The notes under the pieces were generated by a model, which was not told where the DNA came from, did not search any database, and saw only the letters and a list, made by a program, of their open reading frames with translations. A DNA stretch of 42,561 bases from a virus. Below are positions 23,154 to 37,154 of this stretch, in pieces; the stretch's first letter is position 1; every line of letters begins with the position of its first letter. The stretch is from UHGV virus genome UHGV-0163196; one strand, given 5' to 3'. The position numbers were made by a program, and so were the translations under genes.

Positions 23154-23473
23154 TTTTAGCGGCTCCTAGAACATATTGAAGGAGTCTCGCCAGATGCTGC
23201 TAAACATGGGTGGCGAGACGTGACGGGGTTAGCAGACTGGCGTTCTAGGAAACCAGCAGGCGTTAAGCCTCCCCACCACGCCCCGCCATAAATCGGGGGT
23301 ATGGTTGGTTTTCGGGCGTAAAAATACCGCTATACGGAAATCAGCGGCTACCCGCTAGAACGTTCAGGCTGCTAAACCCGGCACCCGTTTTGTGAGGTGC
23401 GAAATAATCATAACCACACTACCCCGTTAAGCGCAAGGGAAATATCCCCTGCGCCCACAATGCAAACTTGTGA
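23154..23473. promoter_or_regulatory. Repeat-rich intergenic region (candidate recombinase/regulator binding sites)
   Basis: Motifs CTAGAAC and GCTGCTAAAC recur in direct and inverted orientation at 23161-23205, 23227-23250 and 23353-23377. Confidence 0.4.
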
Positions 23474-32888: not shown

Positions 32889-33147
32889 CGGTTTGTCCTG
32901 CCCTGTTGTTCTCGAAAATCCTGATATCAGCCTTATCCCTGTTGCACTGCGCCAGCGCTGACAGCAATGCGACATTCAGGTCAAGACTTGCTCCCCACGT
33001 AAACGGGTCGGGTAAGTCTGGCTGGGGTGTTTCAGCCGTCAGGTTGGCTGGTAACGGAACCACCGGAACTGGAACGTAGACCGTTCGCGTAGTCGTGCAG
33101 CCGCTTAACTGCGCCAGAAGGCACAAAACGAACAGCACAATCATCAT
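32869..33147 (-). CDS. Rz1-like o-spanin lipoprotein (overlapping Rz in another frame)
   Basis: Internal start MMIVLFVLCLLAQLSGC with a lipobox, proline-rich mature region; begins inside Rz and extends past its stop. Confidence 0.5.
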   Translation of the reverse strand: MMIVLFVLCLLAQLSGCTTTRTVYVPVPVVPLPANLTAETPQPDLPDPFTWGASLDLNVALLSALAQCNRDKADIRIFENNRAGQTDGTIKR

Positions 33148-33424
33148 CCGCAACAGCAGCCTTGATATCGTTCTCGGTTCTCTGTGACTCCAGTGTGATC
33201 TGCTGTTTTGCATGCTGGTTAGCCTCCAGAACTGTATTGACGATTTGCAGTGATTGCAGGACGTTATTGGTAATGACAGTTGCCGATTTGGCATTTTGTA
33301 CAGCCTCATCAGCACGTTTCTTTTCGTGCTGATATTTGCTGTAGTAGTGGTTGGCAGACCAGATGAAAGAACCGATGACAGTAAAGAAGAATGCAGCGAT
33401 AACCAGCTTATATCTCAGCTTCAT
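33032..33424 (-). CDS. Rz-like i-spanin
   Basis: 130 aa with an N-terminal transmembrane segment ([17 protein letters not shown]) and helical periplasmic domain, directly after the endolysin gene. Confidence 0.6.
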   Translation of the reverse strand: MKLRYKLVIAAFFFTVIGSFIWSANHYYSKYQHEKKRADEAVQNAKSATVITNNVLQSLQIVNTVLEANQHAKQQITLESQRTENDIKAAVADDDCAVRFVPSGAVKRLHDYANGLRSSSGGSVTSQPDG

Positions 33425-33884
33425 TTACTACCCCACCAGCTTTTTTAAATCGGGCAATCAGGTCACCGATTTTATGTTCATACTGACCGTAACCTGCACC
33501 AGGTAACGACGCCCATATATTGCTGCAACGGTCGATTGCCTGACGAATATCACCGCGATCAATCATCGGTAAAGCGCCACGCTCTTTAATCTGCTGCAAT
33601 GCCACAGCGTCCTGGCTTTTGGGAGAGAAGTCTTTCAGGCCAAGCTGCTTGCGGTAGGCATCCCACCAACGGGAAAGAAGCTGGTAACGTCCTGCGGCTG
33701 TTGATTTGAGTTTGGTGTTTAGCGTGACAAGTTTGCGAGGGTGATCGGAGTAATCAGTGAATAGCTCTCCGCCTACAATGACGTCATAACCATGATTTCT
33801 GGTTTTCTGACGTCCGTTATCAGTTCCCTCTGACCACGCCAGCATATCGAGGAACGCCTTACGTTGATTATTGATTTCCACCAT
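33408..33884 (-). CDS. R: Endolysin (lambda R-type lytic transglycosylase)
   Basis: 158 aa, near-identical to lambda R over most of its length ([42 protein letters not shown]…). Confidence 0.9.
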
Positions 33885-34191
33885 CTTCTACTCCGGCTTT
33901 TTTAGCAGCGAAGCGTTTGATAAGCGAACCAATCGAGTCAGTACCGATGTAGCCGATGAACACGCTCGTTATATAAGCGAGATTGCTACTTAGTCCGGCG
34001 AAGTCGAGAAGGTCACGAATGAACCAGGCGATAATGGCGCACATCGTTGCGTCGATTACTGTTTTTGTAAACGCACCGCCATTATATCTGCCGCGAAGGT
34101 ACGCCATTGCAAACGCAAGGATTGCCCCGATGCCTTGTTCCTTTGCCGCGAGAATGGCGGCTAACAGGTCATGTTTTTCTGGCATCTTCAT
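33868..34191 (-). CDS. S: Holin (lambda S type, dual-start)
   Basis: 107 aa, essentially identical to lambda S107 including the Met1-Lys2-Met3 dual start. Confidence 0.9.
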
Positions 34192-34311
34192 GTCTTACCC
34201 CCAATAAGGGGACTTGCTCTATTTAATTAGGAATAAGGTCGATTACTGATAGAACAAATCCAGGCTACTGTGTTTAGTAATCAGATTTGTTCGTGACCGA
34301 TATGCACTGGC

Positions 34312-34346
34312 AAAACGGCAGGAGGTTGTTAGCGCAACCTCCTGCC
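34312..34346 (-). terminator. Perfect 12-bp-stem hairpin (possible weak terminator or RNA element)
   Basis: ggcaggaggttg/caacctcctgcc at 34317-34346 with a 6-nt loop, followed on the minus strand by GUUUUG. Confidence 0.3.
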
Positions 34347-34517
34347 ACCGCTTTCACGAAGGTCATATGTAGAAGGCCGCAGCATAACTATCACTGATGA
34401 ATTCAGGATAGCCAGTGGCTACGGCTCAGTTTGGGTTGTGGTGGTTGGTGCTGAACTCCAACTTGAGGCTACCCATCCTAGCCCGAAGCTAGGTGCTCAC
34501 CTCTGAGCGTTAGCGCA

Positions 34518-35027
34518 TCAGCCTGCGCATTCACCACAATTCTTGTTGTAACTTCCGAATATTTTTTCCCTTTCCGAAGTCACAAATTTTATAGCATCCT
34601 CTTTGCGTTTAAATGTCTTGAAGGCCGCAGTTTTTCTATTAACAAAAACACGAGCATGCCAAAGCCTATCTCTCGAGTGGAAACAAACACCACGACAACC
34701 AGACCGGTTCCTTTTCGAGGTTATTGTGTTCATGTTGTTTTGCGATCTGCTAACAAGCCTAAGATTTGATATCCTGTTGTCGTCTCTTATGCCATTCACA
34801 TGATCTATTTCTAAGCCGCTATTTATTTCGCCATTGCACAAAATCCACGCCAGACGATGAGCAAAGTATCTTTTACCTCCTAAAGATATTTGCCTGTAAC
34901 CGAACGAATTCAGCGAACCAGCAATCATGCCAGGCTTAGATCTTCCTGTTTTTACCTTCCACACGAAGATGCCGGTAGATGGATTAAATGACAAAGATTC
35001 TTTAATGCGTTCACTTGTTAAAAGCAT
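34518..35027 (-). CDS. HNH endonuclease with AP2-like DNA-binding domain
   Basis: 169 aa with HNH motif (…EIDHVNGIRDDNRISNLRLVSRSQNN…) and a C-terminal AP2-like region; AT-rich; sits in the Q-S cargo slot. Confidence 0.7.
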   Translation of the reverse strand: MLLTSERIKESLSFNPSTGIFVWKVKTGRSKPGMIAGSLNSFGYRQISLGGKRYFAHRLAWILCNGEINSGLEIDHVNGIRDDNRISNLRLVSRSQNNMNTITSKRNRSGCRGVCFHSRDRLWHARVFVNRKTAAFKTFKRKEDAIKFVTSEREKIFGSYNKNCGECAG

Positions 35028-35241
35028 TGCGTAAACCTTTTAGAAAGCGAGCCTGTCTCACAGAAAAGCCGCCCGAGAGAGGTCGCCACCTATAACGGCA
35101 TTTCTCAGGCTCGCTTACTGAAAGGATCTCGTTAATATGCGCGTGAGATGCGCTGGAGGGATAACAGGAAAGAGCACTGCATGGTTTTACCATTACATCC
35201 GAAGATTTATCTGGTGTAGTCAATGCTCTTACCTGTTGTGC

Positions 35242-35269
35242 AAATAAAAAAGCCCACAGGCGGTGGGCT
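35242..35269 (-). terminator. tR'-like intrinsic terminator downstream of pR'
   Basis: Stem agcccac/gtgggct at 35251-35269 with a run of A on the plus strand at 35246-35251 (U-run on the minus transcript), about 40-60 nt downstream of the putative pR' start. Confidence 0.55.
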
Positions 35270-35296
35270 TGTGATGGTTGCTGAATGCAAAAGCGG

Positions 35297-35340
35297 CAGC
35301 ATATGTGAATATTATGGCTAAATGGCTAATTGCATGTCAA
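35297..35340 (-). promoter_or_regulatory. Putative late promoter pR' (qut region)
   Basis: Minus-strand TTGACA (plus 35335-35340) and CATAAT (plus 35311-35316) with ~18-nt spacer, overlapping the 3' end of Q. Confidence 0.4.
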
Positions 35341-35836
35341 GGCTTTTAACAGCAACATGCTTAACTTTCTCAACACGTTTACGCATTTTGAAAGCATTTT
35401 GCATTGGTTGGTACAAAACAAATAACGACGATTTCAGGATGTCGTCAATTTCGTTTCTACAGGTTGCCAGTGAAGGTTTTCTCCATCCCTCGCCACCACG
35501 TCCACACATCTTGCGTGGCTTTGCAGTCGCGTGATAGTAGGATGCAATTGCTCGCTTTGATGAACCATGAGCGTAGTAGCTGAGGAGGATGCCAAAGGCT
35601 TTCTTGTCAATGTACATGACGGAATCGACGACCTGAGAAATCAACATTCCATCATCATCATTACACATTGGCCTTGTCATAACTCTTCCCGGCTCTACGC
35701 TCTCCATGAACTTAGCTATTACGCTGCTCATACGCTTTTCCAGACGACCTGAATAAACCCATGCGCCCCACAGTTCAAGCCAGCCATTCAGCCAATCGTG
35801 CTGTTCTTTGGTGAGGTTTAGTTCTCTTATGCTCAT
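35318..35836 (-). CDS. Q: Late antiterminator Q (QuuD-like family)
   Basis: 172 aa; WLELWGAWV…TRPMCNDDDGMLI resembles QuuD-type Q proteins (…ERWGAWA…RPQCCDDDAMII…); last gene of the nin block. Confidence 0.65.
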   Translation of the reverse strand: MSIRELNLTKEQHDWLNGWLELWGAWVYSGRLEKRMSSVIAKFMESVEPGRVMTRPMCNDDDGMLISQVVDSVMYIDKKAFGILLSYYAHGSSKRAIASYYHATAKPRKMCGRGGEGWRKPSLATCRNEIDDILKSSLFVLYQPMQNAFKMRKRVEKVKHVAVKSLDMQLAI

Positions 35837-36380: not shown

Positions 36381-36655
36381 TGGACAAACACCCTCCCATT
36401 GTTAACCAATTTTTTAAGGGTAAGCACAATGGCCCGATCCATTTCAGCCCTTCGCTCTTCCCTGCTCATATCTCTCCCATTATCAATTCTTGAATGACAA
36501 TCAACACATAGCGCAGCAGTAAGGCAATCATCTACTTTAATCCCAACCCCCTTCCCTTCATTTCTATGAGCGGCCTGAACTCCGTATCTTCCGCAAAGAA
36601 CGCAAAATTCAATATCCCTGACTGCCTGAAGCCATTTTTTGCTTCTAAACATCAA
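36377..36655 (-). CDS. Cys/His-rich zinc-ribbon nin-region protein (DUF1364-like)
   Basis: 92 aa with CVLCG…C…CVDCH spacing. Confidence 0.45.
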   Translation of the reverse strand: MMFRSKKWLQAVRDIEFCVLCGRYGVQAAHRNEGKGVGIKVDDCLTAALCVDCHSRIDNGRDMSREERRAEMDRAIVLTLKKLVNNGRVFVQ

Positions 36656-37154
36656 TCCCCTCCAAAAAACGTCGGTACGCTGATTTGTTTTTTATGTTGC
36701 ACACTGTCTGCGCACAAACACCAAATTCTTTGGCTATATCTCTGTATTTTCCTTTTGATTTATATATTGATTTCACTTGTTCTGGCGTTAGTTTGCAGAA
36801 GTGATGATTAAACCCATGAACAAGCAATCCGGAATCAAATCCATGTTTCGCATTTTCTGTTCGCGTTACCCACTCAAGATTTTCAACTTTATTATTAAGT
36901 TTATTTCCATCCTTGTGATTAACTTCCGGTTTGCCATCTGGGTTATCAATAAATACTTCTGCAACAATTCTGTGAACCATTTTATATGATGTTCTTTTCC
37001 CGCCACCTGGATACAGACCGACAAATGCATATCCTCCTGGTTTAATGCCATGAGATAATTTTTTTGATTTACGGCATGAAATGATGTCTCCATTTTCAGT
37101 TACTTTATATATACCCTCAAAGCCGGGGATATCTTTTTCTTTAACATCACTCAT
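36645..37154 (-). CDS. HNH homing endonuclease (NUMOD4-like N-terminus)
   Basis: 169 aa; GFEGIYKVTENGDII followed by an HNH core (…EVNHKDGNKLNNKVENLEWVTRTENAKH…); AT-rich relative to flanking nin genes. Confidence 0.75.
   Translation of the reverse strand: MSDVKEKDIPGFEGIYKVTENGDIISCRKSKKLSHGIKPGGYAFVGLYPGGGKRTSYKMVHRIVAEVFIDNPDGKPEVNHKDGNKLNNKVENLEWVTRTENAKHGFDSGLLVHGFNHHFCKLTPEQVKSIYKSKGKYRDIAKEFGVCAQTVCNIKNKSAYRRFLEGIDV

Follow-up and report, generated by a model that had tools for sequence, protein, structure and literature searches.

UHGV-0163196 is a virus genome of 42,561 nt, which is referred to here as the window and whose coordinates are used throughout. The interval from 34192 to 35027, located between the late antiterminator gene Q and the lambda-type holin gene S, holds an open reading frame (ORF) for an HNH endonuclease and a non-coding stretch with a perfect 12-bp hairpin. 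All genes of the region are on the minus strand, and they are transcribed in the order Q, the promoter pR', the terminator tR', a long hairpin designated I2, a structured leader, the HNH ORF, a spacer, the S leader and S-R-Rz (Table 1). Comparison with related phages showed that the HNH gene travels together with the leader before it among phages whose Q and holin genes are unrelated, and that this pair invariably occupies the slot between Q and the holin gene. It also showed that the hairpin follows the lambda-type holin module in its inheritance and does not follow the cargo. The explanation that we prefer, in which the interval is a mosaic late-operon leader, we judge, when all its parts are taken jointly, to be a little better than evenly probable.

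The Q gene shares ~98% nucleotide identity with Q of HK75, Sf6 and CUS-3, the candidate pR' occupies the position of the pR' annotated in HK75 and Sf6, and HK75, Sf6 and HK629 each have an annotated terminator at the place of tR', which in the window folds with -12.5 kcal/mol (z -2.9). By these similarities, the late control region of the window is of the phage-21 type, as in HK75 and Sf6. The initial annotation, made from the DNA letters, had assigned the interval to the Q-S slot in which lambdoid phages carry late-expressed cargo. This assignment is borne out by the 21-type Q, the pR'-like promoter and tR' upstream, and by Sf6, 21 and SPN9CC, which bear tRNA-Asn and tRNA-Thr there.

The 17-nt arms of I2 are kept in lambda, HK75, HK629 and Enterobacter and Cronobacter prophages, across different Q families, and its interior is different in each phage compared. 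I2 may be a candidate RNase III processing site of the late leader and might match the sites of this kind in lambda late RNA. Lambda late RNA undergoes RNase III processing in vivo, to go by the title of Daniels et al. 1988 (reference 49 in PMC7547250).

Table 1 Features of the Q-S region, in order of transcription, in window coordinates
Feature	Coordinates	Strand	Basis or remark
Q, late antiterminator, phage-21 / Sf6 gp59 type	35318..35836	minus	Pfam Phage_antitermQ, 1.3e-25
pR' promoter, TTGACA-18-CATAAT, overlapping the Q 3' end	35311..35340	minus	Consensus scan, 11/12 matches
tR', 8-bp G+C-rich hairpin (35270..35250) then TTTTTTATTT	35240..35270	minus	Terminator scan
Long hairpin I2, directly 3' of tR'	35163..35237	minus	Fold -28.9 kcal/mol, z -5.8
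Structured leader of the HNH gene, ~126 nt: small hairpin P0 and long irregular hairpin (~34 bp)	35034..35159	minus	Fold -42 kcal/mol
HNH_3 endonuclease with diverged AP2-like C-terminal domain, 169 aa	34518..35027	minus	Pfam HNH_3
Spacer with small hairpins, likely decayed tRNA 3' part (T-arm, acceptor end)	34441..34517	minus	Loose alignment
Conserved leader of lambda-type holin S (= 'bsq3' of CUS-3, Sf6)	34192..34440	minus	Sequence identity
Hairpin GGCAGGAGGTTG CGCTAA CAACCTCCTGCC	34317..34346	minus	Inverted repeat 34317-34328 / 34335-34346
Tail GUUUUGCC, four U's at 34315..34312	34309..34316	minus	Sequence
Second conserved leader hairpin, 9-bp arms GAACAAATC / GATTTGTTC	34252..34292	minus	Conserved in lambda, P22
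CCCC-UUAUU-GGGG stem-loop beside the dual start of S	34198..34211	minus	Compensated in P22 (CCUCACGGUCGUGAGG)
Holin S, lambda type, MKM dual start	33868..34191	minus	Pfam Phage_holin_3_1, 2.4e-30
R	33884..33408	minus	Downstream of S
Rz	33424..33032	minus	Downstream of R

The HNH cassette

The HNH ORF is intact, and residues 54-99 of its product match PF13392 with 68.4 bits against a cut-off of 24.8 (E 4e-19). The catalytic pattern AHR ... DH.N ... N ... N is present. Residues H57, R58, D75, H76, N78, N84, N88 and N97 are invariant across the protein and 8 close homologues, and the equivalent catalytic columns are invariant in AP2-bearing relatives. The homologues number 553; the nearest (95% amino acid identity) are encoded by Enterobacter cloacae prophages and the next (67%) by Cronobacter, and those at 40-50% identity bear HNH_3 and AP2. 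The AP2 domain (PF00847) gave no Pfam match in the window protein even at E <= 10, and the closest homologues (P0001-P0009) are likewise without a precomputed AP2 match. Profile-profile alignment with hhalign against the AP2-bearing relatives, however, gave a probability of 100% and E 4.6e-67 over 161 aligned columns and ran through residues 108-163, whereby the C-terminal ~55 residues align to the AP2 region of HK629 gp61 (Pfam residues 120-167). The C-terminus is therefore a diverged AP2-like domain. Thus, of the HNH/AP2 endonuclease named in the initial annotation, the HNH part stands on its Pfam match, while the AP2 part fails by Pfam and is recovered by profile-profile homology. By these matches, the ORF 35027..34518 is a predicted HNH nuclease of the HNH-AP2 lineage.

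The initial annotation had counted this as a second HNH endonuclease of the window, and another is indeed present at 37154..36645. That gene encodes a homing-type endonuclease with NUMOD4 and HNH_3 (36645-37154, minus strand), lies in the nin region and is unrelated to the first, with a likeness limited to the HNH core; its G+C content is 0.37 compared to ~0.48 around it.

No promoter-like site was found between tR' and the HNH ATG in a consensus scan. A weak promoter-like site directed toward S (34613..34586, minus strand, TTTAAA-16-TAAAAT, 9/12 matches) lies in the 3' end of the ORF; it is also found in the Enterobacter copy, and the count of such sites is that expected by chance. Given its location behind tR' and the lack of a convincing promoter of its own, the HNH gene would therefore be expressed late and in a Q-dependent manner. 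With regard to a promoter and a terminator of its own, as carried by a moron, there is no promoter-like site before the ATG, and the hairpin downstream could serve the gene as terminator.

The DNA that the window has in common with Enterobacter prophages extends over 35262/35178..34510, exactly I2, the leader and the ORF (669-755 bp, 92-96% identity). In Enterobacter and Cronobacter, homologues again lie between Q and the holin gene, and there Q belongs to PF06323 or PF03589 and the holins differ. The IMG/VR contig L083 is identical to the window at the HNH locus. HK75, CUS-3 and Sf6, which share Q and S at ~98%, have no HNH gene, and the gene is absent from 5,426 complete Escherichia coli genomes, in which the leader alone matches. 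Overall, the cassette of leader and HNH-AP2 gene is found in the slot at 8 of 102 lambda-type S loci, in three diverged types. This pattern of presence and absence, combined with unrelated flanks, is what a free-standing homing endonuclease predicts, and we infer from these comparisons that the HNH protein is of this kind. In mixed infections, the nuclease would then carry the cassette into relatives that have no HNH gene.

HNH proteins of lambdoid phages can also serve terminase and the gene lies in the late operon, as would suit a packaging accessory that is terminase-associated like HK97 gp74 and not a selfish homing endonuclease. Yet this role is very improbable for the window protein, which is of another family (HNH_3 with an AP2-like domain, not PF01844) and is encoded ~2.5 kb from the terminase genes. 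Moreover, the gene is missing from close relatives that have the same Q and S modules, and the Cronobacter prophage has this gene plus a separate PF01844 HNH gene beside terminase.

One Enterobacter prophage with a 95% HNH homologue carries isrJ (RF01393, 60.8 bits; locus L225, 2713-2789), a Salmonella small RNA family. It lies between Q (PF06323) and the HNH leader, the place expected of the pR'-tR' short transcript.

Following the HNH gene upstream led to the structured leader, which proved to be widespread and strongly covarying and to occur in many enterobacterial prophages, including Stx2a phages. The 3' arm of its long hairpin (35055..35036) contains the Shine-Dalgarno (SD) sequence AAAGG (35040..35036), 8 nt before the ATG. 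A segment of HK620, phi80, HK106 and HK639, positioned after Rz and a terminator and directly before KilA-N or Rha genes, is 98% identical to 35155..35035, and epsilon34 and Stx2a phages have segments of ~80% identity, which precede a GIY-YIG-like and a Rha-like gene, respectively. Searches with nhmmer and with a covariance model built from ten close copies yielded 64 sense-strand copies of several diverged types at 58 loci (further copies include L272 2477-2607; L225 2869-2994 and 5460-5589; L227 1308-1440 and 3442-3569; and L001 1901-2023). In 62 of the 64 copies an ATG ORF starts within 11-18 nt after the hairpin. The genes downstream encode Phage_pRha, KilA-N (with ORF11CD3 or P63C), T5orf172/MUG113, HNH_3 with AP2, and unknown proteins.

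The covariance model scored the window leader at 154 bits and its reverse strand at 31 bits. In the leader alignment, which was fitted to the covariance model and hence favours structure, 94.9% of the cells are paired, as opposed to 79.6% in shuffles and 34-45% with slid partners. Changes on both sides were observed in 33 of 37 pairs, and G.U pairs outnumber A.C (167 vs 25). The excess of G.U over A.C and the strand asymmetry point to an RNA on the late-transcript strand and rule out a DNA palindrome or a miniature inverted-repeat transposable element (MITE). Two other candidates were also set aside, the former as a general reading and the latter as weak. The first hairpin as a promoter-plus-operator (TTTCAC-17-TATTAA in HK620) finds no -35 element in the window and neither the hairpin nor the spacing in Stx2a phages. 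The inner hairpin as a stand-alone terminator folds with -11.5 kcal/mol (z +0.4), and its U-run is missing in the diverged types. The leader has no Rfam 15 match (the related loci gave isrJ alone, elsewhere), and literature searches found no published description of the family.

Because the ribosome-binding site is buried in the long hairpin, translation of the HNH gene would be held down, and the predicted fold thus suggests that the leader masks the SD and keeps the translation of cargo that may be harmful in check. It may be opened by RNase III. We propose, tentatively and at somewhat less than even probability, that the leader represents a class of cis-regulatory RNA in lambdoid late operons that has not been described before, located immediately behind a terminator and ahead of cargo genes whose DNA-binding or nuclease products are potentially toxic. 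Were it to act as a switch, opened for example through cleavage by RNase III or by a factor acting in trans, it would provide a common post-transcriptional gate for a set of accessory genes, and its near-identical sequence would, if this is true, also be a recombination handle for swapping cargo genes.

The stem-loop of the S leader

The non-coding stretch 34192-34517, put at ~325 bp in the initial annotation, measures 326 bp and contains no ORF of at least 40 aa and none that is conserved. The accompanying view of the stretch as cargo did not hold, as ~250 nt of it are S leader. This leader shares 95-98% identity over 240-249 nt with lambda derivatives, HK75, HK629, Sf6 and CUS-3 and matches 181 phage records; the CUS-3 record annotates the segment as 'bsq3; boundary sequence'. 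Its part from 34361 to 34192 is almost invariant across 105 unique sequences. In HK022-type and mEp-type phages the shared block begins only ~15 nt before the hairpin, and the identity with P22 is 73%. The hairpin is a part of the S leader and occurs in lambda, HK75, HK022, Sf6 and ~180 phage records. Comparing the Q-S regions of related phages, as the initial annotation had advised, therefore finds a conserved leader in the relatives, and the hairpin, together with ~250 of the 326 nt, is not cargo. The CCCC-UUAUU-GGGG stem-loop at the end of the leader is the 'sdi' element of lambda S.

The remaining part, 34517..34441, can be loosely aligned to tRNA-Thr of Sf6 over its T-arm and 3' acceptor end, as well as to similar relics in HK75 and HK629. 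By this alignment it is probably a decayed tRNA remnant, consistent with tRNAs as older occupants of the slot. Relatives that bear tRNAs in the slot, and the unusually good folding of the stretch (z -5.6), would also suit an independent small RNA or tRNA cargo gene, as had been suggested from the letters, but we consider such a gene scarcely credible. ARAGORN detected no tRNA or transfer-messenger RNA in 34192-34517, and an Rfam 15 scan of 34100-35400 returned no family at gathering score and chance-level matches alone at E <= 10 (mir-627, 24 bits vs 86), so that the tRNA and covariance scans proposed for 34192-34517 came back empty. There is no promoter-like site in 34192-34517, and the stretch is mostly S leader, with 34441-34517 a decayed tRNA end at best.

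As initially described, the arms of the hairpin at 34317-34346 are 12 nt long and 100% complementary, and the hairpin lies, like everything else here, on the minus strand. It has 8 G-C pairs and a 6-nt loop, and is the sole perfect hairpin with a stem of at least 12 bp in the 42.5-kb window, for which first-order Markov simulations expect 0.025 per window. The stem contributes about -24 kcal/mol, and its 61-nt context folds with -27.6 kcal/mol (z -3.7). The tail GUUUUGCC hardly varies among lambda-type leaders. In lambda itself the hairpin is found at 45031-45060; its stem there contains a single C.A mismatch (GGTCG), and the same GTTTTGCC comes next. The original lambda GenBank record has no feature annotated at this place.

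Among 126 lambda-type leaders, drawn from IMG/VR by a flanking 19-mer, the stem is perfect in 7 and has one mismatch in 81, two in 34 and three in 4. Pair 5, G-C in the window, is unpaired in 89 of the 126, with G/A/T on one side changing independently of C/A on the other, and stem positions T10 and T11 change to C without compensation. The independence of the two sides of pair 5 and the mismatches in 119 of 126 leaders indicate that a perfect stem is not under selection. The AGGAGG to which the initial annotation drew attention is indeed present, within GGCAGGAGGTTG, but is not conserved, being AAGAGG or ATGAGG in 68 of the 126. All polymorphism of the 170-nt leader, which hardly varies elsewhere, falls on four positions of the stem, where the changes mostly disrupt pairs. 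There is no covariation of the stem among these close relatives, and structural support comes from deeper lineages alone.

In these deeper lineages the pairing is kept in altered sequence. P22 has GGCAAGAGACTG/CAGCCTCTTGCC, with two compensated pairs, and P22-type variants show an A.C at pair 9 that was repaired in two different ways. HK633 has GGCATGTATTG/CAATCCACGCC at the same place, and one IMG/VR type has TAGGGATACTG-CGCAAA-CAGTATCCCTA, an 11-bp stem of wholly different sequence. In some genomes the loop is inverted (TTAGCG, TTGACG). By this comparison, the stem-loop is a conserved structural feature of lambda-family holin leaders, and its perfection and the AGGAGG are incidental in the window. 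A stem-loop 125 nt before lambda S has thus had its structure kept across lambda-, P22- and HK633-type leaders, and our literature searches found no functional assignment for it.

Two coding-related candidates were rejected. AGGAGG as an SD or stand-by site is lost in the 68 leaders noted above, P22-type leaders have AAGAGA or something else in its place, and it is not followed by a start codon. An ORF of 30 aa that spans the hairpin (34366..34274) lacks an SD; in lambda and most relatives an extra G (GCGGGTGG) changes the reading frame and leaves an ORF of 12 codons. P22-type holin leaders (L129 ~690-720, P22) also have a hairpin CCCAGC..GCTGGG just upstream of the conserved one. It is preceded by AAAAGAAAA and forms an intrinsic terminator for the opposite strand.

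Possible functions of the stem-loop

The initial annotation offered three functions for the hairpin, a weak terminator, an RNA processing site or a non-coding RNA. The first is the most plausible and the best supported, and we give it an even chance. With the GUUUU that follows, the hairpin would insulate the holin gene or act ahead of it as an intrinsic terminator of low strength, stopping polymerases that are not Q-modified, whether they leak through tR' or start inside the A+T-rich cargo or tRNA genes. Q-modified polymerase would read through it, and in the lysogen the hairpin would help to silence S-R-Rz. The stem is strong and rich in G+C, and the tail after it hardly varies in lambda-type leaders. 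Canonical sense-strand terminators are found at the same position, behind the cargo and a short way ahead of the holin gene, in three phages with unrelated leaders: phi80, where the terminator is also depositor-annotated (L006 214-235, then TTTTATT), an Enterobacter prophage (L224 3675-3691, then TTTTTTATTT) and a Cronobacter prophage (L227 2040-2062, then TTTCGTATT). For this reason, we favour a weak back-up terminator or insulator that Q would suppress.

Several data weigh against this reading, or against the wider explanation of which it is a part. Four U's fall short of the scan rule of 5 T in 8, and the 119 of 126 close relatives mentioned above have 1-3 stem mismatches. P22-type (UGAUUUGC) and IMG/VR-type (AAUGGUC) leaders have no U-rich tail, and termination therefore cannot be the function conserved across all lineages. 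With respect to the cassette, the absence of an HNH promoter is the outcome of a consensus scan, and the weak site 34613..34586 lies inside the ORF. A variant of the terminator reading is that the S-leader hairpin could be a 'tunable' terminator, with the degree to which the lysis genes leak determined by the four hypervariable positions of its stem.

That the structure is kept in lineages without a U-tract would suit a hairpin that is no terminator but affects the stability or processing of the lysis messenger RNA. It would be a protective stem-loop once the long late transcript has been cut upstream, at tRNAs or RNase III sites for example, or a 3' protective end of cargo transcripts. The long hairpins upstream, I2 and the HNH leader, are suited to RNase III, relatives carry tRNAs whose processing must sever the transcript, and the title in PMC7547250 names RNase III processing of lambda late RNA in vivo. 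However, the hairpin lies ~85-115 nt from the nearest plausible cut, a tRNA or relic end, and so is not a 5' end, while the frequent stem mismatches weaken a protective role. We regard this alternative as unlikely, though deserving more weight than the next.

The inverted repeat may also act as DNA and have no RNA role. It would then be a recombination site or a 'boundary' where two mosaic segments join, or else a dyad bound by a protein. The mosaic breakpoint ~15 nt upstream of the hairpin, the boundary-sequence annotation in CUS-3 and Sf6, the inverted loop (TTAGCG, TTGACG), which represents a DNA event between the arms, and the confinement of leader polymorphism to stem positions are all in keeping with such a role. 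But diverged lineages alter the sequence and yet keep complementarity, which argues for pairing and not for a sequence-specific site, and no candidate binding protein is known. A purely DNA-level role thus appears improbable, and we retain weak termination as the preferred function.

Relation to the rest of the window and to known systems

Outside the late region, the structural genes at 1-24000 of the window are ~94% identical to those of Citrobacter phage Omnitron and include myovirus-like tail genes. The Q and lysis modules are lambda/21-like, unlike the structural genes, and the genome is thus that of a strongly mosaic temperate phage, with a host that is probably other than E. coli. A full-length C4 antisense RNA (RF01695, 75 bits), the P1/P7-type immunity RNA that controls an antirepressor operon, is located at 23206-23293 on the minus strand.

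Much of what the interval holds is ordinary, as an HNH gene in the slot is already annotated in HK629 and the hairpin stands in lambda's own holin leader. The lambda late leader (44,940-45,185) is ~96% identical to 34432-34192 and shares the hairpin, its loop, the GUUUUGCC tail, the second hairpin and sdi. Lambda differs in its C.A stem mismatch, the lack of an HNH cassette and its lambda-type Q with a 6S leader, whereas the window has a perfect stem and a 21-type Q.

Tandem terminators between p'R and S were reportedly mapped in lambda by Luk and Szybalski in 1983. These, like the phi80 pre-holin terminator, are extra sense-strand terminator-like hairpins between tR' and the lysis genes. Lambda 45031-45060 may be one of the mapped sites; the U-tract of the window is short.

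The HNH leader resembles SD-masking leaders that processing or a trans RNA activates, namely the lambda N leader with RNase III and IsrK of Gifsy-1, in having a ribosome-binding site buried in a hairpin on an antitermination-controlled transcript, but has no sequence or Rfam relationship to either. HK629 gp61, annotated as an HNH endonuclease (HNH_3 and AP2), has the same slot, Q type and S leader as the window gene, and a diverged member of the leader family stands before it. The two proteins are 42% identical (E 1e-33), and their genes have no DNA-level similarity. In HK629 the cassette is inserted ahead of I2, behind tR', and includes a second terminator, whereas that of the window comes after I2.

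Phages 21, Sf6 and the Stx phages likewise carry cargo in this slot behind pR'/tR', expressed by Q antitermination (PMC7547250). Their cargo consists of tRNAs or a toxin, while that of the window is a nuclease, next to which a decayed tRNA end remains. The presence of the gene in some close relatives and its absence from others, with unrelated flanks, is as described for HNH-AP2 and other free-standing phage homing endonucleases. HNH-AP2 homing endonucleases, which Magnani et al. are said to have described in 2004, have the same domain pair, although the AP2 domain of the window protein is below Pfam detection. HNH-AP2 genes thus recur specifically in the Q-holin slot of phages of three Q families, and this slot offers a natural system for homing in temperate phages.

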